A stretch of DNA of 16,527 bases, taken from assembly GCF_900289195.1 (NCBI RefSeq), contig NZ_OMOH01000016.1, forward strand, positions 1 through 16,527, given 5' to 3'. The DNA is from Propionibacterium ruminifibrarum (GTDB lineage: Bacteria; Actinomycetota; Actinomycetes; Propionibacteriales; Propionibacteriaceae). Numbering within the stretch: the stretch's first letter is position 1; each line of letters starts with the position of its first letter. The translations under genes and the position numbers were made by a program. Shown in pieces: positions 1 to 12,793 of the stretch. The notes under the pieces were generated by a model. That model was not told where the DNA came from. It did no database searches and worked only from the letters and a program-made list of their open reading frames with translations.

Positions 1-291
1 TTTCTGACAGTGGACGACTTCGCAATCCCCACTCAACCAGCAAGGCCCTCCCATGCGTTCACACCCCTGGATCACAGTCCTTCAACCAACCAGCCCGATC
101 AGTACAGCTAACCACGTTGTCGTGTCCCAGACCGACCCGCTTTGGTGGTGACCACCTCACCGGCCAGGAAGGCGGCCGTCGCGGCCCCGGCCACCATCGC
201 ATCCACCGCCGCAGGGGATGCGACGGACTGCGAGCTGAAGCATCCGGGCGGTCGACCGTCGGCGAGCACCTGGACGGGCCGGAGCACGTTC

Positions 292-321
292 TTGGCCGGG
301 CGCGTCTGCGACCCGTAGTCT
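292..321 (+). promoter_or_regulatory. Putative leaderless promoter of paralog 1 (-35-like TTGGCC 292-297, 18-nt spacer, -10 TAGTCT 316-321, 7 nt to ATG 329)
   Basis: TAGTCT fits the actinobacterial -10 consensus TANNNT and ends 7 nt before the ATG. There is no Shine-Dalgarno sequence in between. The same geometry recurs at all five paralogs. Confidence 0.45.
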
Positions 322-328
322 CGTCACC

Positions 329-961
329 ATGACTTGGAGCAACCCCACCCCGGCGGCAAACGCCTCACTGGCCAAGGGAGCCGCGATCGCAGCACTGGTC
401 TATCACGGCCTCGCCCTCGCCCTGTTCGCGTTCTTCGCGTCCGCCCTCTCGTCGCTGCTCCTCTCCTTCGCGTCCCTCCCCACCGACAACGACCTGGGCA
501 GTCTCCCCCGCGATCTGTCAGCCGCACTCACGGTGATGCTCGTCCTCTTCCTCATCATCCTCGGCTCACCCGTCGCGCTGTCGGTCTGGATGCTCGTCGC
601 CGCGAACCGAGGCCGCCCCGGGCAGGTACTCGCCGCCCTCCTCCTCTACGCCACACCCTTCGTCCTCTTCCTGCTCACCGGGACGGTCATAGCCGTCGCA
701 AACGACCAGGGGAACTCGCTCCTCAGCTTCTACACCAGCGGCCTGCCCGATGCCGCCATCATCATCGTCGGCTGGGTCGGCTGGTGGCAGATGAGACGCC
801 CGCCCGCGGCGCCCGCCATCGGCCAGCCCCCGTACCAGGTGCAGCAGCCGATCCCCTACACCGCACCCGCGCAGCAGTACGCGCCGCCGTATCAGGGCAC
901 GCCCCAGACGCCTCAGCCTCCGCCGCAACCGGGGCAGGGCTCACCGTGGGGCCTGTCCTAG
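329..961 (+). CDS. Paralog 1 (type A) of an unrecognised four-TM membrane protein family with a Pro/Gln/Tyr-rich C-terminal tail; hypothetical protein
   Basis: 210-aa ORF with four hydrophobic segments. N-terminal motif NASLAKGAAIAALVYHG, central LSVWMLVAANRGR, C-terminal-TM motif GWVGWWQMRRPP, then tail PPYQVQQPIPYTAPAQQYAPPYQGTPQTPQPPPQPGQGSPW. Homologous to ORFs at 8013, 8854, 9491 and 10413. Confidence 0.8.
   Translation: MTWSNPTPAANASLAKGAAIAALVYHGLALALFAFFASALSSLLLSFASLPTDNDLGSLPRDLSAALTVMLVLFLIILGSPVALSVWMLVAANRGRPGQVLAALLLYATPFVLFLLTGTVIAVANDQGNSLLSFYTSGLPDAAIIIVGWVGWWQMRRPPAAPAIGQPPYQVQQPIPYTAPAQQYAPPYQGTPQTPQPPPQPGQGSPWGLS
755..949 (+). repeat. Left copy of a 195-nt direct repeat (3' end of paralog 1), about 94% identical to 10848-11042
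   Basis: Ungapped alignment by eye gives 11 mismatches in 195 nt. Homology ends abruptly at 949/950. Confidence 0.8.
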
Positions 962-1317
962 GAACGGTGTCAATGGCTCCATCGCCCGTCAAGGAGCCAT
1001 GACGACCGGGGGCAGCAGCCACCAGCAGTAGCCCGTCGACCGTGGGGTTGGCCAGACTGGAGGCCATGACCCCGACACCACCACCAGAGGAGTCGGCGGA
1101 GCCGGACATGGCCCGGCGTGAGGCGATCGCGCAGATGGTGCGCCGGGCCAAGGACGCCGGTACCGCCCTGATGGCCCGCTCAAGGCGTTGACCATGAAGG
1201 CCGTCGACGAGATGACCACCTGGATGGCCCGGCCGTTGGAGCCCATCCACACAGCGGTGTTCATCGACGCGATTCGAGAATCAAAGTGCGTGACGGGCAG
1301 GGCGGCACGGGCCGAGG
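950..1317 (+). mobile_element. IS256-family (Mutator-type) insertion sequence remnant; transposase pseudogene with frameshifts and a large internal deletion
   Basis: ATG at 1066, preceded by GGAGG, opens MTPTPPPEESAEPDMARREAIAQMVRRAKDAGTAL and then hits a stop. A shifted frame continues PLKALTMKAVDEMTTWMARPLEPIHTAVFIDAIR, and another shift gives VRDGQ. The LLKALT segment and the W..RPL....VFIDAI.VKVRDGQ segment are spaced far apart in intact IS256-type transposases (~400 aa). Only ~85 codons remain here. The left boundary is placed where paralog 1/5 homology breaks (950). The right boundary is approximate, and no terminal inverted repeats were identified. Confidence 0.55.
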
Positions 1318-2145
1318 TCAGCTCTCGGCCGTCACGGGCTCGTCACCGGCGACGATGACGTCCGGGCTCCTCCTGCGCAACTCCGAGACGATCGGCCCGG
1401 GGGTTCCCGAATCCACGATGACATGGTCGAACTCGCCGACGTCGGCGAACCGGAAGATTCCCCTCCTGGTGAATTTCGCATGGTCGGCGAGCAGGACGGA
1501 CTCGTTCCCAGCCCGCAGCATGGCCCTCTTGACCTCTGCCACATCCTCGTAGGGGTGGACACAGGACATGGCCACGATCCCGGGCGCGGACAGGAAACAA
1601 TAATCCGTCGTGATCCTCTTGAGCGCCTCCAGCGTGATGGCCCCCATGGACGAGTGAGCCCACGGTCGGTACTCACCGCCGATGATGACCAGTCCGGACA
1701 CCTTCTCCGATATCGCCTGGTTCGCGATGAGCAACGAATTGGTCACGATCGTCAAGGTGTCGACGCGATCGAGGGACCTGAACAGCCACACCCCGGCGCT
1801 GGAGTCGTCAAGGAGGACGGAACTGCCGGGCGCGACGAGCGAGGCCCCGGCCCGGGCGATGATCCTCTTCTCCTCCGCGCCCTGCTCCACCCTGAAAATG
1901 GCGTCGACCGCGTGAAGGCCGTTCACGACGGCGACGATGCGCCCCCGATTCCTGCGCAACACGCCACAGTCCTCAAGAATGCTCACGTCACGGTAGATCG
2001 TCATCACCGATACGCCGATGAGACCGGCGAGTTCCTCCGCAGTTGCGGCGTCACCAGTCATGACAGCCTTGGCAATGGCCAGCTGGCGAGCACGAACACT
2101 CATTCCAGAGGATCGGCCCTCCTGGTTCTCCCTCATTGTCATCAC
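1318..2145 (-). CDS. DeoR-family transcriptional regulator (N-terminal HTH plus DeoR C-terminal sugar-phosphate sensor domain)
   Basis: MSVRARQLAIAKAVMTGDAATAEELAGLIGVSVMTIYRDVSILEDCGVLRRNRG is a typical DeoR HTH. The C-terminal part (ILLDDSSAG...IVTNSL...GGEYRP...) is DeoR-C-like. The start is ambiguous: GTG 2145, ATG 2142 or 2136, or ATG 2103 (MSVRAR...). Confidence 0.85.
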   Translation of the reverse strand: MMTMRENQEGRSSGMSVRARQLAIAKAVMTGDAATAEELAGLIGVSVMTIYRDVSILEDCGVLRRNRGRIVAVVNGLHAVDAIFRVEQGAEEKRIIARAGASLVAPGSSVLLDDSSAGVWLFRSLDRVDTLTIVTNSLLIANQAISEKVSGLVIIGGEYRPWAHSSMGAITLEALKRITTDYCFLSAPGIVAMSCVHPYEDVAEVKRAMLRAGNESVLLADHAKFTRRGIFRFADVGEFDHVIVDSGTPGPIVSELRRRSPDVIVAGDEPVTAES

Positions 2146-2215
2146 ATCCTCGACAGATGACCGAACCGATGCTACAGAGAGATCATCCCCGCTTCATGGC
2201 CGAACACCGCACTTT

Positions 2216-2240
2216 GAGGCCCGCAGGGCGGCCGGGCCTC
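2216..2240 (-). terminator. GC-rich hairpin downstream of the isomerase gene (candidate intrinsic terminator, no U-tract)
   Basis: GAGGCCCG (2216-2223) and CGGGCCTC (2233-2240) form a perfect 8-bp stem with a 9-nt loop. It lies 30 nt past the stop at 2270. Confidence 0.35.
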
Positions 2241-2269
2241 TTCAGGCTTCTGCTGCCCCTCGACGAGCC

Positions 2270-3100
2270 TCACGGCCCACCCGCCCTCTCCGCCTGGCCA
2301 CGCTCGGACACCGGCAACCAACCCAGTGGATCCGAGTCCCCCGCGGGGTCGTACTCGAGACCCACATACCCGGAGTAGCCCAGGTCGACCAGTGCCCCGA
2401 GGATGTTGGCGAAGTTGAGCTCCCCGGTTCCCGGGCGCCCTCTGGTGGGGACATCGGCGATCTGCACGTGCCCGATGCGACCCATGATCCTGGAAAGGGT
2501 CGAGATGACATTCCCCTCCGTCAGCTGAGCGTGGTAAACGTCGTAGAGGAGCACGACGTTGTCGCTCCGACAGGCCTCCACCACTCGCATCGCCTCGTCA
2601 GTGTCGCGGCACGCGTAGTTCCGGTGCGCAGACCTGTTGAGGGGCTCGACGAGAATCCTCCTGCCCTGCGCGCACGCCTCGAGCGCGGCCCAGCGCATGT
2701 TCTCGACGAGGCAGTCCATTCCGACGGCTCGGCTCCGATCCCCGGGAATGTCCCCGGCCAGTACGTTGATGTCGTCGCAATCGGAAAGCACCGCGAAGTC
2801 GAGCGCCTCGAGGAACCGGGCGCGCCATTCTTCCACCCGGTCCGGGTCGGCCGCGAAGCCGCGCTCGCCCTGCGCATAATCGCCCTCGTACATGTTGAAC
2901 ATGGATATCCGGACGTGCTCGCGCCGAGCGGCCGCGGCCACCTGCCGGTAATCGACTCCGGCGGGCCAGAACAACTCAACGGCTCCGAAGCCGTCCTGTC
3001 TGGCGGCGGAAAACCTCTCGAGCAGCGGGCGGTCCGTGTGGAACCAGCCCAAGCTGAGGGAGTAGGAGAACCTCCTCCCCCGCGGATGAATCGTTGCCAT
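2270..3100 (-). CDS. Hydroxypyruvate isomerase family protein (Hyi/OtnI-like, xylose-isomerase-like TIM barrel)
   Basis: Family motifs present: GERG, ILVEPLN, YDVYHAQLTEG, IGHVQIADVPTRGRPGTGELN, GYVGLEYDP. The preferred start is ATG 3100 (MATIHPRG), preceded by GGAGAGAGG. The ORF track extends to 3178, but that extension lacks an RBS. Confidence 0.85.
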   Translation of the reverse strand: MATIHPRGRRFSYSLSLGWFHTDRPLLERFSAARQDGFGAVELFWPAGVDYRQVAAAARREHVRISMFNMYEGDYAQGERGFAADPDRVEEWRARFLEALDFAVLSDCDDINVLAGDIPGDRSRAVGMDCLVENMRWAALEACAQGRRILVEPLNRSAHRNYACRDTDEAMRVVEACRSDNVVLLYDVYHAQLTEGNVISTLSRIMGRIGHVQIADVPTRGRPGTGELNFANILGALVDLGYSGYVGLEYDPAGDSDPLGWLPVSERGQAERAGGP

Positions 3101-3229
3101 GGCCTCTCTCCGTTGCACAATTGATTCAGCGTGACGAGTCAGGAATGGACGGCCCCCGCCCGGGACCTCGCAGCCCACCGCGAGACGTGTTCATGGCACG
3201 ACAGGGCAGAGATCTGTCAGGGGGTTGCG

Positions 3230-3239
3230 TTTCTGAAAA
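3230..3239. promoter_or_regulatory. TTTCTGAAAA motif upstream of the isomerase gene, identical to one arm of the 7644-7667 palindrome (candidate operator half-site)
   Basis: An exact 10-mer is shared with 7658-7667. Both copies sit in intergenic DNA roughly 120-170 nt upstream of minus-strand genes. The motif is AT-rich within GC-rich sequence. Confidence 0.3.
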
Positions 3240-3371
3240 AGTTCTGTGGGCAAGTTCCCGTGATCGGTCATGCCGTCGTGATCCGTTCTTCCAGCGGGCC
3301 GGCTGGACGCCGTCCCGGCCCGGACGCGATGTCCTGGCCCTGTGCCCGCCCGGGGCCGCCCACGTCGACGG

Positions 3372-3406
3372 CCCCGGACACCCGATCGGGCGGCACCCGT
3401 CCGGGG
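3372..3406 (-). terminator. Hairpin immediately after the MFS transporter stop codon (candidate terminator)
   Basis: CCCCGGAC (3372-3379) pairs with GTCCGGGG (3399-3406). The loop contains the self-complementary CCCGATCGGG. There is no U-tract. Confidence 0.3.
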
Positions 3407-3407
3407 G

Positions 3408-4715
3408 TCAAACAGCGGCCTCGTCCTTCGCGGGCGTGGGTGCCACCTCGTCGAGGACGAAGACGATGGAGACGAGCCCGACCACCGCCCACGCGCCGAT
3501 GTAGACCATCATCGCGTTGTACCCGCTGAGACTGACCAGATAGCCGGCGACGACGGGTGAGATGGCACCGAACAGGTTAGTGCAGAACCCGTACACGCTA
3601 TTGGCGACAGCGACGCATTCCTTCCTCGAGACCTCCGCCGGAAGAATCCACGCACAGTTGCCCATGGCAGCCCCGAAGTAACCGATGGAGATGATCACGA
3701 GTCCGGCGAGCTGACCGTGGGCGAAGGGCATGACGAGCACCACCGCGGTGAGAACGAGACCAATCACGATGGGGACCTTGCGGGCGTGTTTCCTGCTCAC
3801 ACCGCGCGCGACCAAGTGGTCACTGATCCATCCCCCGAAGACGATACCGACCAGCGCGCACAGGTAGGGGATCGTGCCCTTGACGCCGCCCCTCAGGCCT
3901 CCCGTCACATCGACGTCGAAGGCCTCGCGCATGTACTTGGGGAGCCAGGTCATGAAGAAGAAGAACGCGGTCGACGTGGCACCGGTGATGATGTACAGGG
4001 CGATGAGACGCCGGTCGCTCAGAACGTACTTCACGTGCTCGCGCGTGGTCCTCCCGGCGCTCCTCTCCTCGCCGCCGCCGGCCTGGATGAGCTCGACCTC
4101 GGTCTTGTTGACCCGCGGCGCCCCCTGCGGGGTGTCGTGCACGACCGCCCGCCAGAACACCGAGACGAGCAGGGTGACGGCACCCGCGAAGACGAAGGCT
4201 CCTCGCCAGCCCCACGCGTGGGTGACGCCGGCAACGATCGGGATGCCGAGAGCGGTGCCGCAGGTGGCCGCGAACTGGTAACTCGAGACCGACTTCGCGC
4301 GCTCAGTGGGCGGGAACCAGCGGCGCACCAGCGTCGCGTTCATCGGGAAGGTCGGTGCCTCGAAGACGCCGAGTCCCAGGCGGCAGGCCATGAGCGACTT
4401 GAACCCGACTGTGCCGCCGCTGAGCAGCGTCATGAGCCCGAAGCCGATGAGGCCCACGAAGCCGACGATCCGCTCCCCGAACTTCTGCATGAGGACGCCG
4501 AAGACCAGGATGACGACCACGATGCCCCAGACGAAGGCCGAGGAGAGCCAGCCGTACTGGACATCGCTCATCCCGAATTCCTTCTGGACCGTCGGTCCGA
4601 CGACGGCGAGCACCGCCCGGTCCAGGTAATTGGCGAAGGTCGCCGCGATCATCGCGGCGAGGACCCAGACCCGGAACCGGGTCGGTCTCGCCTCTTCAAC
4701 AAGTTTCGCTGACAT
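3408..4715 (-). CDS. MFS transporter, anion:cation symporter (ACS) type, likely an acid-sugar or organic-anion importer
   Basis: 435 aa with about 12 hydrophobic segments. The N-terminal FANYLDRAVLAVVGPTVQKEFGMSDVQYGWLSSAF and GLGVFEAPTFP...RWFP..ERA motifs are typical of hexuronate/galactonate/tartrate-type MFS carriers. GAGGG lies 8 nt before the ATG. Confidence 0.85.
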   Translation of the reverse strand: MSAKLVEEARPTRFRVWVLAAMIAATFANYLDRAVLAVVGPTVQKEFGMSDVQYGWLSSAFVWGIVVVILVFGVLMQKFGERIVGFVGLIGFGLMTLLSGGTVGFKSLMACRLGLGVFEAPTFPMNATLVRRWFPPTERAKSVSSYQFAATCGTALGIPIVAGVTHAWGWRGAFVFAGAVTLLVSVFWRAVVHDTPQGAPRVNKTEVELIQAGGGEERSAGRTTREHVKYVLSDRRLIALYIITGATSTAFFFFMTWLPKYMREAFDVDVTGGLRGGVKGTIPYLCALVGIVFGGWISDHLVARGVSRKHARKVPIVIGLVLTAVVLVMPFAHGQLAGLVIISIGYFGAAMGNCAWILPAEVSRKECVAVANSVYGFCTNLFGAISPVVAGYLVSLSGYNAMMVYIGAWAVVGLVSIVFVLDEVAPTPAKDEAAV

Positions 4716-4805
4716 TGATTAACCCTCGATGTTCTTCGTGGGGTCCGGTCCGAGTCCGCCCACGGCCCCGCGTGGACGGCCCGCACCATGACCCGATGGT
4801 TTCGT

Positions 4806-5408
4806 TCATTCCGAGCCGCCGAGGAGGAAGGCGATCATTGCGGTCTCCTCGACCAACTCAGCAAGGTGCTCGGCCGCTATGGGGTCGCGGCCCAGTGCCA
4901 CGAGACCGTGGTCACGCAGGACGAAGGCCATCGGCGCCGACGGCCCAGCAGCGATGACGGACCCGACCCGTGGCCAGTCCTGCGGGGGTACGGCCGCGTG
5001 GTGCACGTCGATCACGGGGAAACCGTTGGGCTGCTTCATCCTGGAGTGCCAGGTGGGCTGGGGGATCCTCTCGTGCGATCTGGCGACGGCGATCGAATAG
5101 GGCGCATGGCAGTGCACGATCGCGTTCACGTCCGGGCGCGTCTCATAAATCCTCGCGTGGAGGAACGCCTCACGAGTCGGTGCGCCCCGCCCGGAGAGCA
5201 CGTTCCCCGAGAGGTCGGTTTCGAGGAAGTCGTCCGCATCGCAGTCGGCCAGGGACGTTCCACTGCGCGTCACGATCATCGAGCGGCTGTCCGGCCCCAC
5301 GCGGGCGCTGACGTTACCCCCGTCGCCGGTCTGGATCCCGCGCCGGTAGGCACGCCGGGCCGCCCTCACGAGCAGTTCCCTCACATCGTCTTGGCCGTCC
5401 ATCGTCAT
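4806..5408 (-). CDS. Class II aldolase/adducin-domain protein (aldolase, epimerase or decarboxylase fold)
   Basis: GNVSAR, the metal-binding VHCHAPY and the later DHG motifs are present. ATG 5408 overlaps the upstream stop as ATGA. ATG 5402 has better spacing from GGAGG and is an alternative start. Confidence 0.85.
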   Translation of the reverse strand: MTMDGQDDVRELLVRAARRAYRRGIQTGDGGNVSARVGPDSRSMIVTRSGTSLADCDADDFLETDLSGNVLSGRGAPTREAFLHARIYETRPDVNAIVHCHAPYSIAVARSHERIPQPTWHSRMKQPNGFPVIDVHHAAVPPQDWPRVGSVIAAGPSAPMAFVLRDHGLVALGRDPIAAEHLAELVEETAMIAFLLGGSE

Positions 5409-6655
5409 TCACCTCCGCACGTGGTCCGGCCGGAGATCCTCGCGAAGAGATCGGCAGCAGCAGTCCCAAATCCCTCTGTGTTCAGGTCGCCCTCGAAGAG
5501 GGTCGTCCTCAAACCGGGCCCTGCGCTCTCGATGATCGCGTCAACCAGCGCCTTGTCGACCTCGGGATCGTGCATCTTCCCGCCTGCCTCGGCCTCGGAG
5601 CGGAGGGCGCCGGTCGGGATCAGCATGTCAACGCCCCGGTGGCTCCCCGCGATCCTGCCGCCGATGACGCGTCCGACCCTTCTCGCCTCCTCAACCGTCA
5701 GCTTGATGTGCGCGAGGTTGCTGTTGTGCAGGACAAACCGGCGCCCCGCCAGGCCAACCGGGAAGTTGTCGGTCCAGTCGTCGATGAAGTCCAGCCCGCC
5801 CGGAGCCAGGAGCACCGGCGCGTCACCGGCCAGGAGCCGCTCCAAACGGCCTTTCGCACCGACCGAGTAGCCGGTTTCCATGACATCGCTGACGATCTCG
5901 TGGAGTGTCATGTCGAGTGCCCCGTGGAGCAGCCCCTCTTCGACGCACTCCTCCATCGTCGGCCCGCCCGAACCCGTGGCGTGGAAGCCCACCGGCTCGA
6001 AACCGAGTTCCCGCAGCCGTCTGATCGCCGCCACGGCGGCGATGTTGGTCACGCCCATCTGGGTCAACCCCACCGACAGCCGGCTCCCCCGCCGGATTCC
6101 CTCCCCCGGGTTCTCGGCGAGAGTGAGCATGCCGGCCAAGCAGGCGCACGCGTTGTCGAGCGTCGTCCGCGTGAACATGTTCACCCCGGCGAGATCGGAC
6201 AGGGACGGGACCACGATGATGTCCCTGTTTCCGGTGACGAGCTGGAATTCCCGTGGTCCGGTGGCCGCCGTGGTCACCATCACCTTGGGCAGACCGATGG
6301 GAAGGCGCCGCATGGCCGAGGTCGCGAGAACGGTGTTCTGGAGTCCTCCGGCCGAGATGATCCCGTGGACCTGCCCCTCCCGGTGGAGACGACAGATGAA
6401 CTCCGCCGCAACAGCGGCCATGAAATCGATCTTCTCTCCCCTGCCGGAACTCGCCAGTGCATTCCACTCGGCGCTGTGAAAACGACGGATCTCATTCGAG
6501 GAGTATCCGGTCCCGGGATCGAGCGGATCGGTGTCGAGGGTCGAGACGTCGATGTAGAAGGGATCGAGGTGGGACGCAGCCAAGCGGGAGAACATGAAGC
6601 GCATCTCCTCCCGTTTGGTGTCCCAGCTACCGACGATCGCTGCTCGTGGTGCCAT
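5405..6655 (-). CDS. UPF0261 family protein (Tm-1-like ATP-binding domain), function uncharacterised
   Basis: Starting at MAPRAAIVGSWDTKREEMRF, it matches the family N-terminus (I.GT.DTK..E). GGLQNTVLATSAMRRLPIGLPKVMVTTAATG matches the conserved GG......AMR.LP.G.PK.MVST core. The start at 6655 is preceded by GGGGGAA. The 516-aa ORF in the track is an Arg/Ser/Thr-rich out-of-frame overlap with the upstream gene. Confidence 0.8.
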   Translation of the reverse strand: MAPRAAIVGSWDTKREEMRFMFSRLAASHLDPFYIDVSTLDTDPLDPGTGYSSNEIRRFHSAEWNALASSGRGEKIDFMAAVAAEFICRLHREGQVHGIISAGGLQNTVLATSAMRRLPIGLPKVMVTTAATGPREFQLVTGNRDIIVVPSLSDLAGVNMFTRTTLDNACACLAGMLTLAENPGEGIRRGSRLSVGLTQMGVTNIAAVAAIRRLRELGFEPVGFHATGSGGPTMEECVEEGLLHGALDMTLHEIVSDVMETGYSVGAKGRLERLLAGDAPVLLAPGGLDFIDDWTDNFPVGLAGRRFVLHNSNLAHIKLTVEEARRVGRVIGGRIAGSHRGVDMLIPTGALRSEAEAGGKMHDPEVDKALVDAIIESAGPGLRTTLFEGDLNTEGFGTAAADLFARISGRTTCGGE

Positions 6656-7472
6656 CGGTTCCCCCAATGATCGGGTTCTCCGCCAGACGATCGGGAAGGG
6701 TCTTGTCGTGCGCGGGAAGGATCTGGTGCCTCTCCTCGACGCGGGCCTTCTGCTTGCGAACGCTGTTCCACGTCGCCACGACGTCGGCGAAGCGGCCCGG
6801 CGGGATGATGTCGTAGTGCAGTTCCGGAATCGGGTCGAGATTGCGCAGATCGAAGAGGGAGTCGCCGGCGCAGATGTAGTTCCGGCCGTCGGCGCAGTCG
6901 ACCTCGACGGAGACGTGCCCCGGCGAGTGCCCGAACGTCTCGAGGATCCTGACACCCGGGATCACCTCGAGCTCGTCACCCTCGACTGGCTCGATGTGCG
7001 TGTTCCCCTTGTAGGGGGCCTCGAGTCCGAGCGCGGGATCCTCGTATGACTTGTAGTACAGGGGGATCGGGTGCTGGGCGAACTCGTATTCGCGCCGGTG
7101 GACGAGCACTCGGGAGTTGTTGAACTTCTCGAGATAGTAGGAATGGTCCCAGTGCAGGTGCGTGAGGATCACAATGTCGATGTCATCGCACGAGTACCCC
7201 ACGCTCTTAAGCATGCTCTCGATGTCCTGTCCCTCATCCTGCCAGGAGCCGGGATGGTGGTACTCATTGGCCCGTTCCGTCCAGGACATCCCCGTGTCGA
7301 CGAGAACGAGCCGATCACCGCCCTCGACGAGAAAAGCATAATCGGGAAGCGGAATCTTCTCGTCCGGGACGTCCCTCAGGTAGGGCTCCGCCGAGAAGTG
7401 GAAATGATACTGAAGAGGCTTGGTCGGGATGAACCCGGTATTCAACGGCCTGATCGTCAGGTTCGATGCCAC
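6627..7472 (-). CDS. MBL-fold metallo-hydrolase (lactonase-like, AiiA/AHL-lactonase-type architecture)
   Basis: HxHxDH motif LTHLHWDHSYY plus a later GHSPGH. The preferred start is GTG 7472, preceded by AGGAGA at 6 nt. The ORF track starts at ATG 7526. The 3' end overlaps the UPF0261 start by 29 nt. Confidence 0.8.
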   Translation of the reverse strand: MASNLTIRPLNTGFIPTKPLQYHFHFSAEPYLRDVPDEKIPLPDYAFLVEGGDRLVLVDTGMSWTERANEYHHPGSWQDEGQDIESMLKSVGYSCDDIDIVILTHLHWDHSYYLEKFNNSRVLVHRREYEFAQHPIPLYYKSYEDPALGLEAPYKGNTHIEPVEGDELEVIPGVRILETFGHSPGHVSVEVDCADGRNYICAGDSLFDLRNLDPIPELHYDIIPPGRFADVVATWNSVRKQKARVEERHQILPAHDKTLPDRLAENPIIGGTDGTTSSDRR

Positions 7473-7643
7473 TTTGCGTCTCCTAAACGAAGTTGTGGAT
7501 AGCGCCGCCACGAGGTATCGCGCCATGGCGGTTCACCCCCGACGTCGACACCCCCTGCGGCACACCAAAATTATTTCCACGAAATGCCCCGGTCAAGCAC
7601 ACCCCATCCCTCAAGACAGGGACTCCCCACAATGTCAGATGTG

Positions 7644-7667
7644 TTTTCAAAAATATATTTCTGAAAA
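7644..7667. promoter_or_regulatory. 24-bp AT-rich near-perfect palindrome TTTTCAAAAATATATTTCTGAAAA, candidate operator (DeoR?) in the divergent intergenic region
   Basis: 22 of 24 positions are self-complementary. It lies in the lowest-GC stretch of the window (about 7560-7860), upstream of the MBL-led minus-strand operon. One arm recurs at 3230-3239. Confidence 0.4.
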
Positions 7668-7975
7668 TCGTTTCCAGTTATCACGTTCCTTGTTGACGGG
7701 TTGAACCAATCGGTCGATCAGGGGACACTCCCCTCACACGACCGCTGTTATGCCCTCAACAGAGCACACAGGATCGGACATCAACGGTCACAACTGGACA
7801 CGGCAAATAAAATCCCGGGAATCTCATGATCCGAGATCATTCGTTTCGAGATTCGGTCATCGTGGTGCTCGGCCGGCGGGCTGCCGTCTCACCACACCCC
7901 TCGAACCGTACCAGCGAGCCTCGGAGAGGCAGTTGACCGCACCGAGGGCGCGGGTTGACGAGCGATCACCACACC

Positions 7976-8005
7976 CTGGTCAGGTGGGCCTCGGCCCGAT
8001 AGCTT
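7976..8005 (+). promoter_or_regulatory. Putative leaderless promoter of paralog 2 (CTGGTC, 18 nt, TAGCTT, 7 nt, ATG 8013)
   Basis: Same TANNNT+7 geometry as the other four paralogs, with no SD sequence. Confidence 0.45.
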
Positions 8006-8012
8006 TGTCATC

Positions 8013-8642
8013 ATGCCCAGGACGAACCCCGTTCCCGAGACAGGGACCTCGTTGGCCAGGGGAACGGCCATCGCAGCCCTCGTCTACCACGGCGCCACGC
8101 TCCTGGTGGCCATGGCCCTCGCGATGGTTTACGGCCCGGTGATCTTCATCTTCGGGGGCGCCGCACTCTCCATGGAGGACTACAACAGCCGCGCCGCGGC
8201 GACGGCCATGGTCTTTCTTCTGATGCTCATCATCGCCCTCGTCGTTGTCGCCTCACCCGTCGCGCTGGCTGTCTGGATGATGATCGCCGAGCGCCGCAAC
8301 AACTCGGGGCAGGTGGGGGCGGCGCTCATCGGTTTCTCCCTGCTGGCCGGGCTCGCCCTGATCGCCGTGGTGACCTGGCTCCTCACATCCGGCCCGGGCG
8401 CCCCGACCGCTGTCCTTCTCATGTTTCTCCCCGAGTGCGTCATCATCATTCTCGGGTGGATCGGCTGGGCTCGCATGAGAGGCGCCTGTGCACCCGGCCC
8501 GTTCCCGAACCAGATGCACATCGGCCCCCATCCCACACCCGTCCAACAGCATGCGTCCCACCACGGCCGGCCCCTGACGCCGCCGACCTCGCCGTGGCAG
8601 GGGCAGGAGTCGCCCTGGCCGGCACCAGGGCGGATGGGCTGA
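8013..8642 (+). CDS. Paralog 2 (type B) of the four-TM Pro-rich-tail membrane protein family; hypothetical protein
   Basis: 209 aa. Motifs TSLARGTAIAALVYHG, SPVALAVWMMIAERR, LPECVIIILGWIGWARMR, and tail ending TSPWQGQESPWPAPGRMG. Shares YGPVIFIFGGAALSMEDY with paralog 4. Confidence 0.8.
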   Translation: MPRTNPVPETGTSLARGTAIAALVYHGATLLVAMALAMVYGPVIFIFGGAALSMEDYNSRAAATAMVFLLMLIIALVVVASPVALAVWMMIAERRNNSGQVGAALIGFSLLAGLALIAVVTWLLTSGPGAPTAVLLMFLPECVIIILGWIGWARMRGACAPGPFPNQMHIGPHPTPVQQHASHHGRPLTPPTSPWQGQESPWPAPGRMG

Positions 8643-8815
8643 CGCCCCCGGCCACGCCCGACCCAATGACCGCGCATCCGTTCTCGGCCCTCACCGGGAA
8701 ACCTCGACCCGACGCCGGCCCGTACCCTCCCTCCCGATGGGCACGATGAGGCGGATCCGACACGCGACCGGGCGAGATCCAGAGGTCCACTGAGAAGAAC
8801 TCCTCACGAACACCC

Positions 8816-8846
8816 CTGGCCGGGCAGGCCGCCACCCCCGTAACCT
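8816..8846 (+). promoter_or_regulatory. Putative leaderless promoter of paralog 3 (CTGGCC, 19 nt, TAACCT, 7 nt, ATG 8854)
   Basis: Same geometry as the other paralogs, with no SD sequence. Confidence 0.45.
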
Positions 8847-8853
8847 CAAGGCC

Positions 8854-9480
8854 ATGAGCCAGATCACCCCAGCCCCCGAGGCCAACATCTCATTGGCCAA
8901 GGGCTCGGCCATCCTCGCCATCGTCTATCACAGCATCCTCGTTGCGACGGCTTTGGCCACCACCGTAGCCATCGGCGGGATGACAACGCTGATGGGCTAC
9001 AGCGGATCCGGAGGACTCGAGGGCGAAGGGTCTCGAGCCGCGAGGGAAGTCATGCTCATCACCGTGATGGCCCTCATGGCCACTCTCGCGCTCCTGACCC
9101 TGTCGATCTGGATGCTCGTCTCCGTACGTCGTTACCGCCTCTGGCACGTGTGCACAGCGCTCATCGTCTTCTCGGGGCTCGCCGCGCTCCCCCTGATCAT
9201 CGCGGCGATCGGGCTAGCGCCCAGCGCCCTGTTCTCGTTCAGCCTCTACCTCCTCCCCGAAATCCTCGTCGCCCTTCTCGGCTGGTTCGGCTGGTTCCGC
9301 ATGAGACGCCCACCCGAGGTACCCGCCGTCGGCCAGTTCTCGTACCAGCTGCCGCCGCCCGGCCCCTACACCGCCCATCCCCCGCAGTACGCGCCCGCGC
9401 CCTACCGCCTGCCCCCGCCGAGCTCATCGCCCTGGTACGGGCAGAGCACGCCCTGGCCCGGTGGACAGCCGGGCCGGTAG
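8854..9480 (+). CDS. Paralog 3 (type C, most divergent) of the four-TM Pro-rich-tail membrane protein family; hypothetical protein
   Basis: 208 aa. Motifs NISLAKGSAILAIVYHS, LSIWMLVSVRR, LPEILVALLGWFGWFRMRRPP, and tail PPPGPYTAHPPQYAPAPYRLPPPSSSPWYGQSTPWPGGQPGR. Confidence 0.8.
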   Translation: MSQITPAPEANISLAKGSAILAIVYHSILVATALATTVAIGGMTTLMGYSGSGGLEGEGSRAAREVMLITVMALMATLALLTLSIWMLVSVRRYRLWHVCTALIVFSGLAALPLIIAAIGLAPSALFSFSLYLLPEILVALLGWFGWFRMRRPPEVPAVGQFSYQLPPPGPYTAHPPQYAPAPYRLPPPSSSPWYGQSTPWPGGQPGR

Positions 9481-9483
9481 CCT
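9453..9483 (+). promoter_or_regulatory. Putative leaderless promoter of paralog 4, embedded in the 3' end of paralog 3 (CTGGCC, 19 nt, TAGCCT, 7 nt, ATG 9491)
   Basis: The TAG of the -10 hexamer (9478-9480) is the stop codon of paralog 3. The -35-like element lies in the codons for the terminal TPWPG motif. Confidence 0.45.
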
Positions 9484-9490
9484 GGCGGCC

Positions 9491-10141
9491 ATGACGCAGC
9501 TCAGCCCCGCTCCACAGACAGACGTCTCGTTGGTCAGGGGAACGGCCATCGCCGCCCTCATCTACCAGGGCGCCATCTTCCTGGCAGCCATGGCCGTCGC
9601 GCTGACCTACGGCCCGATCATCTTCATCTTCGGCGGCGCCGCGCTCTCCATGGAGGGCTACAGCAGTCAAGCCATGACGGACGCCGGAATCTTCTTCCTG
9701 GTGTGCATCGCCGCTTTCGTCCTTACCACGGCGCCCTTCGTCCTAGCGGTTTGCATGTTCATCGCCGCACGCCGCAATGACATACGCCAGATGAAGGTGG
9801 TGCTCGTCCTCTTCACCCTGGTGTCCGCACTCACACCGATCGGCATGGTGGCCCTGATCGCAACCGCCCACCACATCCCGGCCGCCGCCCTTCTCGCGAC
9901 GATCCCCGAGTGGGCGATCGTCGTTCTTGGCTGGACCGGTTGGACACGCATGAGGCACCCGTCAGCACCAGTCGCCGACCAGTCGCCTCAGCAGATGCCT
10001 CAGCCGGCCCCCGGGGTGCTGGCTCAGCACCCCGAGCCAGTACCTCACCACGGCCAGTCCCAGACGCTCCCCACCGACCTCGCCGTGGCAGGGACAGGTG
10101 TCACCAGGTCACCATGGCAGGCGCCGGGGCGGATGGGTTGA
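9491..10141 (+). CDS. Paralog 4 (type B') of the four-TM Pro-rich-tail membrane protein family; hypothetical protein
   Basis: 216 aa from ATG 9491 (MTQLSPAPQTDVSLVRGTAIAALIYQG), aligned with the N-termini of the other paralogs. The ORF track's GTG 9461 start adds 10 residues that overlap paralog 3. Motifs YGPIIFIFGGAALSMEGY, IPEWAIVVLGWTGWTRMR, ending RSPWQAPGRMG. Confidence 0.8.
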   Translation: MTQLSPAPQTDVSLVRGTAIAALIYQGAIFLAAMAVALTYGPIIFIFGGAALSMEGYSSQAMTDAGIFFLVCIAAFVLTTAPFVLAVCMFIAARRNDIRQMKVVLVLFTLVSALTPIGMVALIATAHHIPAAALLATIPEWAIVVLGWTGWTRMRHPSAPVADQSPQQMPQPAPGVLAQHPEPVPHHGQSQTLPTDLAVAGTGVTRSPWQAPGRMG

Positions 10142-10213
10142 GGCTCCCCGCGGTCGGGACGGTGCCGGACAACCACGCCCCCAGACTCGCCCGAAAACCG
10201 CCGACCTCGACAG

Positions 10214-10280
10214 CCGCCATGCCCGACGGCACTGCTCACCGGGCATGGCGGCGAAAGGGCCCCGCCTGCGCCGCGGGGCC
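10214..10280 (+). terminator. Two consecutive GC-rich hairpins in the paralog 4/5 spacer (candidate terminator or insulator)
   Basis: CCGCCATGCCCG (10214-10225) and CGGGCATGGCGG (10240-10251) form a perfect 12-bp stem with a 14-nt loop. GGCCCCGC (10258-10265) and GCGGGGCC (10273-10280) then form an 8-bp stem with a 7-nt loop. There is no U-tract. Confidence 0.4.
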
Positions 10281-10375
10281 GCCCGGGGCATCACGGCCCG
10301 GTCGTCTTTCGCACACAGTCTCGTTGTCACGAACCAGACCGGCTCCTCCCCGCCGCCCACCACGCGGCCATGGTC

Positions 10376-10405
10376 TTGGCCGGATGCGCCGGCACCCCGT
10401 AGCCT
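10376..10405 (+). promoter_or_regulatory. Putative leaderless promoter of paralog 5 (TTGGCC, 18 nt, TAGCCT, 7 nt, ATG 10413)
   Basis: Nearly identical to the paralog 1 promoter: TCTTGGCCGG...CCCGTAG(C/T)CTCGTC. Confidence 0.45.
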
Positions 10406-10412
10406 CGTCCTC

Positions 10413-11066
10413 ATGACCCAGAACAGCCTCACCCCGGCAGGAAACGCCTCACTGGTCAAGGGAGCCGCGATCGCGGCACTGGTCTATCGCGGTCTCGCCT
10501 TCCTGGCGTTCGGATTCTTCGCGTCCAGCCTCACATCGCTGTTCTTCCCCTTGGCGTCCCTTGTCCCCACTGGCACCAGCGATTCCCCCAGTGAGTTGTC
10601 GGCGGCCCCCGCGGTTCTGCTCATCTTCCTTCTCACTGCCCTCGGCGCCCCCGTTGCGCTGTCGATCTGGATGCTCGCCGCAGCGAATCGGGGCCGCTCG
10701 GGGCAGGTGCTCGCGGCACTCATCCTGTACTCGATCCCCCTCGGTCTCTCCCTGATCGAGGGGATCGTCGTTGTCGTCTCGTACGATCACGACCCGGCCC
10801 TGTCTGGCCCCTCCCTCAACCCCGTGATCGGGATCCTGCCCGAAGCGGCCATCATCATCGTCGGCTGGGTCGGCTGGTGGCAGATGAGACGCCCACCCGC
10901 GGCGCCCGCCATCGACCAACCCCCATACCAGGTGCAGCAGCCGATCCCCTACACCGCACCCCCACAGCAGTACGCACCGCCGTATCAGGGCCCGCCCCAG
11001 ACGCCCCAGCCTCCGCCGCAGCCGGGGCAGAGCTCACCGTGGCAGCGGCCGGGCCAGAGGGGTTGA
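10413..11066 (+). CDS. Paralog 5 (type A') of the four-TM Pro-rich-tail membrane protein family; hypothetical protein
   Basis: 217 aa from ATG 10413 (MTQNSLTPAGNASLVKGAAIAALVYRG). The track's 322-aa ORF carries a 105-aa Arg/Pro-rich N-terminal extension with no counterpart in the other paralogs. The C-terminal ~65 aa are almost identical to paralog 1. Confidence 0.8.
   Translation: MTQNSLTPAGNASLVKGAAIAALVYRGLAFLAFGFFASSLTSLFFPLASLVPTGTSDSPSELSAAPAVLLIFLLTALGAPVALSIWMLAAANRGRSGQVLAALILYSIPLGLSLIEGIVVVVSYDHDPALSGPSLNPVIGILPEAAIIIVGWVGWWQMRRPPAAPAIDQPPYQVQQPIPYTAPPQQYAPPYQGPPQTPQPPPQPGQSSPWQRPGQRG
10848..11042 (+). repeat. Right copy of the 195-nt direct repeat (3' end of paralog 5), about 94% identical to 755-949
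   Basis: See 755-949. Confidence 0.8.
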
Positions 11067-11326
11067 CGGACGGCTCGCAGGTCACCGCCCCGCTGGGCGT
11101 ACGACCGCGAGGAATCCGGTGATGCCGCCGTCGGCGCCCGGTGACCTGCTCGGGTGCGAACGGATCACCCATGGCCACCGCGATGTATCTGGCCTGCGGT
11201 TCACGGGCGACGAGTTCCATGACCGGACGCCTGATGCGCTGATTGCGCCACCCGGTACCGGGTCCGGTGACCGACGGGCCGCTCAAGGGGCTTCAGCGTT
11301 CGGGCCGCGCTCCGTCCCTGCGATCG

Positions 11327-12793
11327 TCAGCGAGACGCCCCACCTCGCCGGGAAACCGTTCGGGCATGCCGCAACCCCGGGTCGGGACTGCTCCAGCGCC
11401 CGCCCGTGATGTCGATGACCACGCCGGTCACCACGCAGACCAGCGTCGGGAAGGTCCAGCCCGTCTCGTCGTTCCAGAGCCGGGTGCGAGCCAGCAGGAC
11501 GCTGGGTGCGGTGACACCGAGAGCGCTCAGCGCCGAGACCAGGCCAAGCAGCCCGGCGCAGGCCGTGCCCCATCGGTACGCGGCACGCAGGTGGCCGGGT
11601 GCCACCGCGTCGACGAGGGTGACCGCGACGAGCGTGATGGCGACCGGGTACAGCAGCAGGGTGATGGGGAAGACGATCCTCACGATCATGCCGAGCCCCA
11701 GGTTCGCCAGGAAGAAGCAGACCACCGTGCCCGCCACGAGCTGTCGGCCGAAGCCCACTCGTGGCCATGCTGTCGCCGCATAGCTCGACCAGGCGCTGAG
11801 CAGGCCGGCCGATGTGGTGAGACAGGCGAGGATGACCACGGCGGCGAAGATCACGACACCGGCACCGCCCAGCGAATGGGCTGCGGCGCCCCGCAGCAGC
11901 CCCGCGCCATCGCTCGGGTCGCCACCACCGACACGGGCACCGAGCATGGCCAGGCCAAGGTAGACCAGGCCCAGTAGCGCGGCGGCGATGGCAGCGGCCA
12001 CCGAGGCGGCACTGACGGTCCTGCGGCGGTCCGTCGCTCCCTGCGAGTCCAGCGCGTTGAGCACGACGAGGCCGAACACCGAGGCCGCCAGCACGTCCAT
12101 CGTGAGGTACCCCTGCACGAGGCCGGTTCGGAACGGACTGGTCGCATATCCACCGGCGGGCTCCTGCTCGGCTGCGGGGAGCCGTACGAGGACGACCACG
12201 CACAGCACCGCAACGAGTATGAGCAGTGTCGGGGTGAGCCAGTGTCCGATCCGGTCGGCCAGGCGGGAGGGTTTGAGGGCCAGCAGCAGGGTGAGGCACC
12301 CGAACACGGCCGCGTGCACGGGCAGCGCCCAACGTCCGGGCTCGACGCCGGCCTGAGCCAGCAACGAGCGGGTGGCCAGTTCGTACGAGACCGTCACGAC
12401 GCGCGGCACCGCGTACAGGGGACCGATGACGAGGTAGACGACCAGCGGCATGAGGGTACCGAACCGGGGCCCGACGCGGTGCGCGATGCCGCTGATACCC
12501 TCCCCCGAGGTCGACACGGCGACAATCGTGGCGAGCGGCAGGATCACTCCGGTGAGGAGGAAGCCCGCGAGGACGACGGGGAGGTGCGCACCGGCCGAGG
12601 CGCCCAGCACCGGCGGGAAGATGAGGTTCCCCGCGCCGAAGAACAGGGCGAAGAGCATGAGCCCGGTCGTGGTGACGTGACCGGTGGGGTTGGTCTGGGC
12701 AGGCACGGGGACCTCTTGTCTGGTACGGCGGCGTGGCAGGGACCCGTACACAGTAGACGAGGAGGCAACCTTGCCCACATCAGTGGCTGGCAC
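11327..12793 (-). CDS. brnQ: Branched-chain amino acid transport system II carrier protein (LIVCS family)
   Basis: GLMLFALFFGAGNLIFPPVLG is the BrnQ signature near the N-terminus. There are about 12 TM segments. The track start GTG 12793 gives an unusually long N-terminus. GTG 12706, preceded by AAGAGG at 6 nt, is a plausible alternative (460 aa). Confidence 0.85.
   Translation of the reverse strand: MPATDVGKVASSSTVYGSLPRRRTRQEVPVPAQTNPTGHVTTTGLMLFALFFGAGNLIFPPVLGASAGAHLPVVLAGFLLTGVILPLATIVAVSTSGEGISGIAHRVGPRFGTLMPLVVYLVIGPLYAVPRVVTVSYELATRSLLAQAGVEPGRWALPVHAAVFGCLTLLLALKPSRLADRIGHWLTPTLLILVAVLCVVVLVRLPAAEQEPAGGYATSPFRTGLVQGYLTMDVLAASVFGLVVLNALDSQGATDRRRTVSAASVAAAIAAALLGLVYLGLAMLGARVGGGDPSDGAGLLRGAAAHSLGGAGVVIFAAVVILACLTTSAGLLSAWSSYAATAWPRVGFGRQLVAGTVVCFFLANLGLGMIVRIVFPITLLLYPVAITLVAVTLVDAVAPGHLRAAYRWGTACAGLLGLVSALSALGVTAPSVLLARTRLWNDETGWTFPTLVCVVTGVVIDITGGRWSSPDPGLRHARTVSRRGGASR

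Follow-up and report, generated by a model that had tools for sequence, protein, structure and literature searches.

An apparent orphan family of four-helix membrane proteins with Trp-motif tails in Propionibacterium, arranged in tandem in one clade

The stretch of DNA considered here (the window) covers 16,527 nucleotides of contig NZ_OMOH01000016.1 of Propionibacterium ruminifibrarum (assembly GCF_900289195.1). Five paralogous genes on its + strand encode small proteins of one architecture: a membrane bundle of ~155 residues, then a basic juxtamembrane junction (MRR), then a C-terminal tail rich in proline and glutamine that carries an SPW or TPW motif close to its end. Copies 2 to 5 follow one another in tandem, and a 7-kb sugar-catabolic block, running from a DeoR regulator gene to that of a metallo-β-lactamase (MBL)-fold hydrolase, separates them from copy 1. 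Each copy is preceded by a conserved element resembling the promoters of leaderless messenger RNAs (mRNAs). Coordinates are collected in Table 1; loci fetched from other assemblies and proteins found in the searches are cited by L and P numbers.

The five genes of 208-217 codons announced in the original prediction are all present at the starts it gave. For copies 4 and 5 those ATG starts align with the N-termini of the other copies, and the mechanically called open reading frames begin further upstream; the start of copy 4 is set by N-terminal homology (MTQLSPAP) and by the spacing of its upstream box. In an analysis of GC content by codon position, third-position GC (GC3) of the copies is 0.82-0.88, the level of the neighbouring DeoR, MFS, BrnQ and oxidoreductase genes. 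This coding signal persists in the tails (GC3 0.75-0.89), and insertions and deletions (indels) between orthologous tails are multiples of 3, or sum to one, so that the frame is kept. Because of the GC3 signal and these frame-preserving indels, the five copies are real translated genes, tails included. A profile built from the family recovers each of them at E ~1e-90, along with homologues in other species, so that their resemblance greatly exceeds what chance would give.

The 40-45 nt before each start codon are conserved among the paralogs and also in the orthologues of other species, following the pattern TGGYCNG-N16/17-TA(G/A)YYT-N6/7-ATG or GTG, in which the box takes the form CCGTA(G/A)YCT. 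Conservation takes in more than the hexamer: it covers CCGTAGCCT, to which close relatives add TGGCCGG 16-17 nt before it. Between the end of the hexamer and the ATG or GTG of every copy and orthologue lie 7 nt (6 nt in L001 and L002). Before the start codons of the family no Shine-Dalgarno sequence can be seen. A regular expression for the element found 32 matches in 400 kb (the window and the loci, both strands), 32/32 of them at family start codons, and 0 in 200 shuffles of the window; as the expression was written from the upstream sequences of the family itself, only its specificity counts as independent evidence.

In P. acnes, promoters carry GnTTnG and TAnnnT boxes with the transcription start site at the start codon, and many mRNAs are leaderless and begin with AUG or GUG (PMC3848588). 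The TA(G/A)YYT hexamer of the family fits TAnnnT, and its placement and the missing Shine-Dalgarno sequence are those of leaderless genes of Propionibacteriaceae. The family element differs from the P. acnes promoters, however, in being conserved well past the hexamer and in overlapping the last codons of the upstream paralog in three gene pairs. It is read here as a putative promoter of a leaderless mRNA, by which each copy would form an independent leaderless transcription unit. No intrinsic terminators were found in 7400-11400, and scans of the window for Rfam families and for tRNAs yielded no non-coding genes. An operator-like inverted repeat in the promoter spacer was considered and dropped, being no more frequent than in shuffled sequence.

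One such overlap links copies 3 and 4. The element of copy 4 lies within the last 12 codons of copy 3, so that the tail end TPWPGGQPGR* and the promoter-like element are one DNA, and the TAGCCT box opens with the TAG stop of copy 3 (9478-9480). This 10-nt doublet junction is also present at L009 9102-9141 and L007 3429-3468. Upstream of copy 3, 33/40 nt are shared with P. acidifaciens (a count on the printed sequences), and the box is better conserved than coding sequence. Two points count against the promoter reading: upstream conservation among paralogs may be partly inherited from the duplication unit, and the copy 3 DNA has to serve as coding tail and box at once.

A MAFFT alignment of the five copies (28-67% identity to copy 1) contains 28 invariant columns, within which falls every motif that the original prediction had listed: S13, L14, G17, A19, I20, A22 and Y25 of the N-terminal motif; M88 and R94 at the end of the second transmembrane helix (TM2) and in the basic loop that follows; P140 of the LPE/LPD/IPE motif; G148, W149, G151, W152, M155 and R156 of GWxGWxxMR; and P206 and W207 of SPW/TPW. 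TM4 is the best conserved segment, with a mean pairwise identity of 0.58 where the helices range over 0.30-0.58 and the tail stands at 0.38. The connectors TM1-TM2 and TM3-TM4 are, as had been predicted, the most divergent parts, at 0.26 and 0.14. Under the invariant GWxGW motif that closes TM4 lies a perfect 9-nt tandem repeat of two units (GTCGGCTGG or TCGGCTGGT; 767-784, 9278-9297 and 10860-10877), so that the motif is an internal duplication of three codons.

An AlphaFold2 model of the core, computed from a 15-sequence core alignment, shows four long helices (12-48, 61-94, 97-125 and 128-156) at a mean predicted local distance difference test score (pLDDT) of 85, in support of the four-helix architecture first proposed from the sequence. 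The full-length model of copy 5 retains these helices, with tail residues 163-217 at pLDDT ~42-49, and the tail is accordingly predicted to be disordered. Over 15 members, Lys plus Arg average 1.3 per protein in the N-terminus, 2.2 in the loop joining TM2 to TM3 and 2.1 behind TM4, a sum of 5.5, against 0.7 and 0.3 (sum 1.0) in the two connectors, which are both acidic. By the positive-inside rule this bias supports a topology in which both termini are inside, the basic loop and tail would face the cytoplasm and the connectors would lie outside, as had been supposed.

Among the 15 members only P8, G17, A22, P81, M88, L104, W149, G151, W152 and M155 are invariant or nearly so, and no polar or charged residue within the helices is conserved family-wide, which argues against an enzyme, a channel or a transporter. 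A four-TM bundle is a common pore or holin-like architecture, and the bundle might itself be the functional part, as a small channel, holin-like pore or transporter subunit whose tail only regulates it. The helices nevertheless hold no conserved polar or charged residue; no holin or transporter family of Pfam, NCBIfam or PHROGs is matched; the core has no significant structural neighbour; and in the stretches examined the two synteny classes have no lysis cassette or transporter partner in common. Such a role is highly improbable. A holin- or LrgA-like identity was rejected for the lack of Pfam, PHROG and phage relatives, and the tail is nearly uncharged.

The family could not be placed in any known domain when the window was first read, and wider searches bear this out. 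With membership in Pfam-A and NCBIfam defined as a whole-protein score at or above the curated cut-off of the family, the best Pfam matches of the five copies score 8-17 bits against cut-offs of 23-30, with a different family for each copy, and the best NCBIfam match, to IPTL-CTERM, reaches 14.9 bits against 20.5; eight more distant members are likewise without a match above cut-off. PADLOC gives no significant match (one member reaches E=0.077 against a generic 2TM effector), PHROGs no phage protein family (best E 0.16) and a PDB sequence-profile search nothing significant (best E=0.019, to Vph2 over 70 residues). In Foldseek searches of the core model no hit falls below E 0.1, the best being 0.91 in PDB and 0.11 in BFVD. 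Scaffolds of the tetraspanin, claudin or MARVEL type are no closer, uroplakin and PRPH2 matching at E >=5 and TM-score 0.26-0.38 in the Foldseek PDB search. A sorting signal of the IPTL-CTERM, PEP-CTERM or LPXTG type at LPE-TM4-RMRR was also rejected: it scores 11-15 bits against 20.5, and with 52-60 residues following it is not C-terminal. Judged by these sequence and model comparisons, the family matches no described family and ranks as an orphan.

The distribution is narrow as well. When 1.84 billion cluster representatives were searched exhaustively with a profile, 19 proteins were returned at E<=1e-3, of which 16 are at E<=1e-10; the two weakest, the borderline proteins P0022 and P0023 with four TM segments and P/Y-rich ends, reach an hhalign probability of only 20-27% and were excluded as homologues. 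All named members are annotated 'hypothetical protein' and come from P. australiense, P. acidifaciens, Propionibacterium sp. and a metagenome-assembled genome corresponding to the window (Propionibacteriaceae bacterium; genes E7Z97_02560, _02595 and _02600). Among 185,579 species genomes scanned, the family occurred in Propionibacterium only, a metagenome scan found P. acidifaciens-type single copies only, and there were no relatives in viral contigs, phage genomes or plasmids. On these searches the family appears restricted to the genus Propionibacterium.

Species outside the P. australiense clade have one copy each, in two synteny classes. The P. acidifaciens-type copy adjoins pflA-pflB, with a flavin adenine dinucleotide (FAD) oxidoreductase gene also adjoining in P. 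acidifaciens L003, and the copy of a second lineage, distinguished by its long tail, is divergent from tpx and lies near argG, a SIR2 gene and a HAD hydrolase gene. The tpx gene (AhpC-TSA/Redoxin) stands ~110-150 nt from the long-tail family gene and is always divergent, a constancy that may reflect only genome relatedness. A conserved gene neighbourhood was sought and rejected, neither class having a recurrent functional partner. In P0019 (L013 4442-5785), the 447-aa called product consists of the C-terminal part of one copy (..CWVGWARMAG..) fused to an entire second one; therefore the second lineage also has, or had, tandem copies.

The tails measure 50-70 residues in the array copies and up to ~200 in single-copy orthologues. 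They contain 19-34% Pro and 9-22% Gln, are also rich in Tyr and Gly, and hold K, R, D and E at 0-7% each. The last Trp lies 4 residues from the C-terminus in copy 1 and 8 in copies 2-5, and the Trp positions of the array copies (-8, -15 and -22 from the C-terminus) describe 1-3 tandem heptads x-[S/P]-P-W-x-G-Q; one tail contains a 21-nt tandem repeat. In the long-tail orthologues, 43-63% identical overall, the tails of 125-198 residues cannot be aligned save for two islands, YEQxEPTRRLPPPEAWP and DEPTxxQRSPWARPD, the second of which carries the SPWx(R/A)P also found in copies 2, 4 and 5. This motif is the sole tail element kept throughout the family: as [S/P]PWx[R/A]P it stands close to the C-terminus in most orthologues and in all array copies, where it recurs 1-3 times with a spacing of 7 residues. 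Metagenome contigs of the P. acidifaciens type (L020, L021 and L016) carry a tail repeat, QPGAYYSP(T/A), in 1, 2 or 3 units in proteins that are otherwise near-identical.

Conserved islands in an otherwise freely drifting disordered sequence are the signature of binding motifs, and this is the main basis for proposing that the proteins are membrane tethers. The four-helix bundle would be a passive membrane anchor, and the tail a flexible leash offering a cytoplasmic partner a short linear motif centred on Trp, which would be multivalent in the array copies, so that the protein would act as a tether or adaptor and not as an enzyme, channel or transporter. This is the best available model and is held tentatively, its chances being put somewhat below even. 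Several points weigh against it. Its basis is a pattern of conservation, and the topology that would put the tail in the cytoplasm comes from charge bias and a structure model. SPW is not strictly universal, the P. acidifaciens-type proteins ending in ...QRSW or ...RRGW, and P0019 has no terminal motif. Ratios of nonsynonymous to synonymous substitution (dN/dS; Nei-Gojobori, by region) are mostly 0.4-0.8 in the N-terminus and helices, with 1.04 in the most divergent pair, high values for an important protein, and P. australiense tolerates broken copies.

These last points can also be taken to mean that the family is young, weakly constrained and lineage-specific, with little or no cellular role, and that the array is the neutral, decaying product of segmental duplication. 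The limitation to one genus, the high dN/dS throughout, the frameshifted and insertion sequence (IS)-disrupted copies of P. australiense and the metagenome variants P0009 (internal TM2-TM3 deletion) and P0007 (frameshifted tail) all agree with this. Nevertheless, no lineage seen lacks an intact copy, orthologues of 31-37% identity still share the tail islands and the GWxGW/MR junction, and conservation is higher in the upstream box than in the coding sequence; the codon-position GC is intact and tail indels stay in frame. A family of little or no function is regarded as unlikely.

The original prediction had also proposed to look for diversifying selection on the outer loops, of which the regional values give no convincing sign: dN/dS is 0.4-1.8 in the loops, on only 39 codons and not consistently >1, while the helices are high too and the tail, at 0.34-0.74, in most pairs does not exceed them. 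All of these values are probably inflated by the extreme GC3 bias, through compression of dS. The pattern looks like generally relaxed constraint, not loop-specific positive selection.

The array itself is known only from the clade that unites the window species with P. australiense, where it lies upstream of brnQ, a short-chain dehydrogenase/reductase (SDR) gene, an FAD oxidoreductase gene and an acyltransferase gene. The window had been described as holding a five-copy family; the five copies are real, but the family is larger. Where contigs of the window species extend further, a sixth intact copy (c0; P0010/P0043, E7Z97_02600), a frameshifted fragment and an IS3 remnant lie upstream of copy 1, which gives the species at least 6 intact copies and a fragment, and therefore two sub-arrays: the fragment, the sixth copy and copy 1 on one side of the sugar-catabolic block, and copies 2, 3, 4 and 5 on the other. 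Four subtypes can be distinguished, A (copies 1 and 5 and P0008), B (copies 2 and 4 and P0006), C (copy 3 and the fragment) and D (the sixth copy), with a between-subtype identity of 24-41%, a level about as low as that shared with orthologues from other species. The closest relative of copy 1 is P0008 of P. australiense (75% core identity); the core of copy 4 is 65% identical to P0006 of that species, and the core of copy 2 is 54% identical to P0006 and 51% to copy 4.

Tails and cores have not always travelled together. Between copies 1 and 5 nucleotide identity is 89% in the tails versus 74% in the cores, which points to gene conversion or to a tail under tighter constraint; between copies 2 and 4 it is 71% in the cores and 49% in the tails, and some copies are mosaic. 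Several of the P. australiense copies carry a frameshift or an IS insertion. Given these broken, mosaic and variant copies, the array appears to evolve by birth and death. Its history would begin with a single ancestral gene, amplified by segmental duplication in the P. australiense lineage, and would have passed into the present birth-and-death phase with its mosaic copies, frameshifts and IS insertions.

A tandem array of divergent membrane paralogs also invites comparison with immunity systems. In Staphylococcus aureus, the TsaI/DUF443 array beside TspA consists of tandem polytopic membrane immunity proteins next to a secreted membrane toxin. The Propionibacterium array resembles it in being a strongly divergent set of tandem small polytopic paralogs whose copy number varies between strains, but differs in having no match to DUF443 or another Pfam family, no adjoining toxin or secretion genes, single copies at housekeeping-type loci in other species and a long disordered tail with a conserved motif.

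By analogy, the array could be a set of diversified membrane immunity or exclusion proteins directed against a membrane-acting toxin (a bacteriocin or polymorphic toxin) or a phage, with the outer loops setting specificity. The tandem multi-copy organisation in four divergent subtypes is consistent with this, as are the outer loops, which are the most divergent segments and reach dN/dS of 1.2-1.8 in some pairs, the variation of copy number and integrity between strains and species, and the IS elements in the array. In P. australiense, moreover, the region directly upstream of the array (L006 1-9200; LR134442.1, 2300976-2310175) holds an Rhs/PT-HINT polymorphic toxin, the toxin and orphan toxin fragments standing ~5-8 kb upstream. 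That Rhs protein, however, ends in a soluble toxin domain, and immediately after it comes a soluble 116-aa gene of its own, read as its immunity gene. A duplicated pre-toxin fragment follows, with three IS elements, one of which splits a family copy. A functional link between toxin and array was rejected on account of that adjacent soluble gene, the three intervening IS and the absence of the adjacency in the window species, where no toxin or secretion gene occurs in the window or within 10 kb upstream (L009).

Further evidence points the same way. The single-copy orthologues lie beside tpx, argG, pflA/pflB or the FAD oxidoreductase gene, with no toxin in the stretches examined; PADLOC, phage, plasmid and viral-contig relatives are lacking; the loop dN/dS does not consistently exceed 1; and a conserved, motif-bearing cytoplasmic tail is unexpected in a simple immunity protein. 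An immunity or exclusion role is thus quite unlikely, and the earlier suggestion of a surface-variation, phage- or toxin-interaction or immunity family found no support, there being no conserved linkage to toxins or phage. A more elaborate form, in which the array would be an unrecognised immunity or exclusion system of Propionibacterium, each copy neutralising a different toxin or phage through its loops while the SPW tails couple all of them to a common partner, is very doubtful.

The family may also be compared with uncharacterised actinobacterial P/G/Y-rich TM proteins, which include DUF4190- and RDD-type proteins and those of the mycobacterial 'proline-rich antigen' type. These share with the family a small helical membrane domain, a disordered P/G/Q/Y-rich segment and a high-GC actinobacterial host. 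The family differs in that its low-complexity part is C-terminal and bears the conserved SPWx(R/A)P motif, in that its membrane domain matches neither type (the sole such match is one member at E=0.31), and in being confined to one genus.

The remaining features of the window concern the block between the sub-arrays and the left end. At 962-8012, on the - strand, lie genes for the DeoR regulator, an AP_endonuc_2-type isomerase, an MFS transporter, a class II aldolase, a UPF0261 protein and the MBL-fold hydrolase, a block absent from the corresponding region of P. australiense; GC content drops to 0.575-0.61 at 6500-8000. The MBL-fold protein (6627-7526, - strand) matches Lactamase_B and has a weak precomputed Pfam match to Anti-Pycsar_Apyc1. 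The mechanical open reading frame of the UPF0261 gene (5405-6955, - strand) encodes 516 aa versus products of 396-416 aa called in other assemblies, and its Arg/Ser/Thr-rich N-terminal part is probably untranslated. At the left end, bases 1-108 bear no resemblance to other assemblies of the species, to which identity resumes at base 109 (TAACCACGTTGT...). An IS end was considered for these 108 bases and rejected, as they match nothing in any fetched locus; they represent either a strain rearrangement or an assembly breakpoint.

Table 1. Positions of the family genes, their upstream elements and tails, the left end of the window and the tpx genes of the long-tail lineage. Positions refer to the window unless a locus is named.
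Feature	Position	Strand	Description
Copy 1	329-961	+	210 aa, subtype A; exact match to E7Z97_02595 (P0002); GC3 0.88
Copy 2	8013-8642	+	209 aa, subtype B; E7Z97_02560 (P0003)
Copy 3	8854-9480	+	208 aa, subtype C
Copy 4	9491-10141	+	216 aa from ATG 9491, subtype B; mechanical open reading frame from GTG 9461
Copy 5	10413-11066	+	217 aa from ATG 10413, subtype A; adjoins brnQ; mechanical open reading frame from GTG 10098
Upstream element, copy 1	293-328	+	TGGCCGG-N16-TAGTCT-N7-ATG; box 316-321
Upstream element, copy 2	7977-8012	+	box TAGCTT 8000-8005
Upstream element, copy 3	8817-8853	+	box TAACCT 8841-8846
Upstream element, copy 4	9454-9490	+	box TAGCCT 9478-9483, inside 3' end of copy 3
Upstream element, copy 5	10377-10412	+	box TAGCCT 10400-10405
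Tail, copy 1	800-958	+	P/Q/Y-rich, 31% P, 20% Q; end GSPWGLS
Tail, copy 2	8484-8639	+	two heptad-spaced motifs, TSPWQGQ and ESPWPAP
Tail, copy 3	9310-9477	+	two heptad-spaced motifs, SSPWYGQ and STPWPGG
Tail, copy 4	9959-10138	+	one motif, RSPWQAP
Tail, copy 5	10893-11063	+	one motif, SSPWQRP; pLDDT <50 in full-length model
Left end of window	1-108		stands where other assemblies (L009, L012) have the 3' end of the sixth copy; breakpoint exactly where the sixth copy ends
tpx near long-tail family gene	L002 9376-9876		
tpx near long-tail family gene	L004 6322-6936		
tpx near long-tail family gene	L013 3832-4314		
tpx near long-tail family gene	L014 667-1167		

The genus consists of rumen, oral and animal-lesion bacteria and the family bears signs of relaxed constraint, so that its wider importance is limited for now. 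For genome annotation, the promoter and start-codon rule and the single DNA stretch shared by a coding tail and the box of the next gene are useful in themselves, and the family merits a mention both to annotators of Propionibacterium genomes and to students of bacterial disordered regions. Interaction of linear motifs through disordered tails is well studied in eukaryotes but little in bacteria. If the tether model is true, these proteins would provide a compact bacterial membrane anchor that works through a disordered tail and a Trp-centred linear motif, and the contrast between single-copy and six-copy lineages would constitute a natural experiment on how motif and leash diversify.

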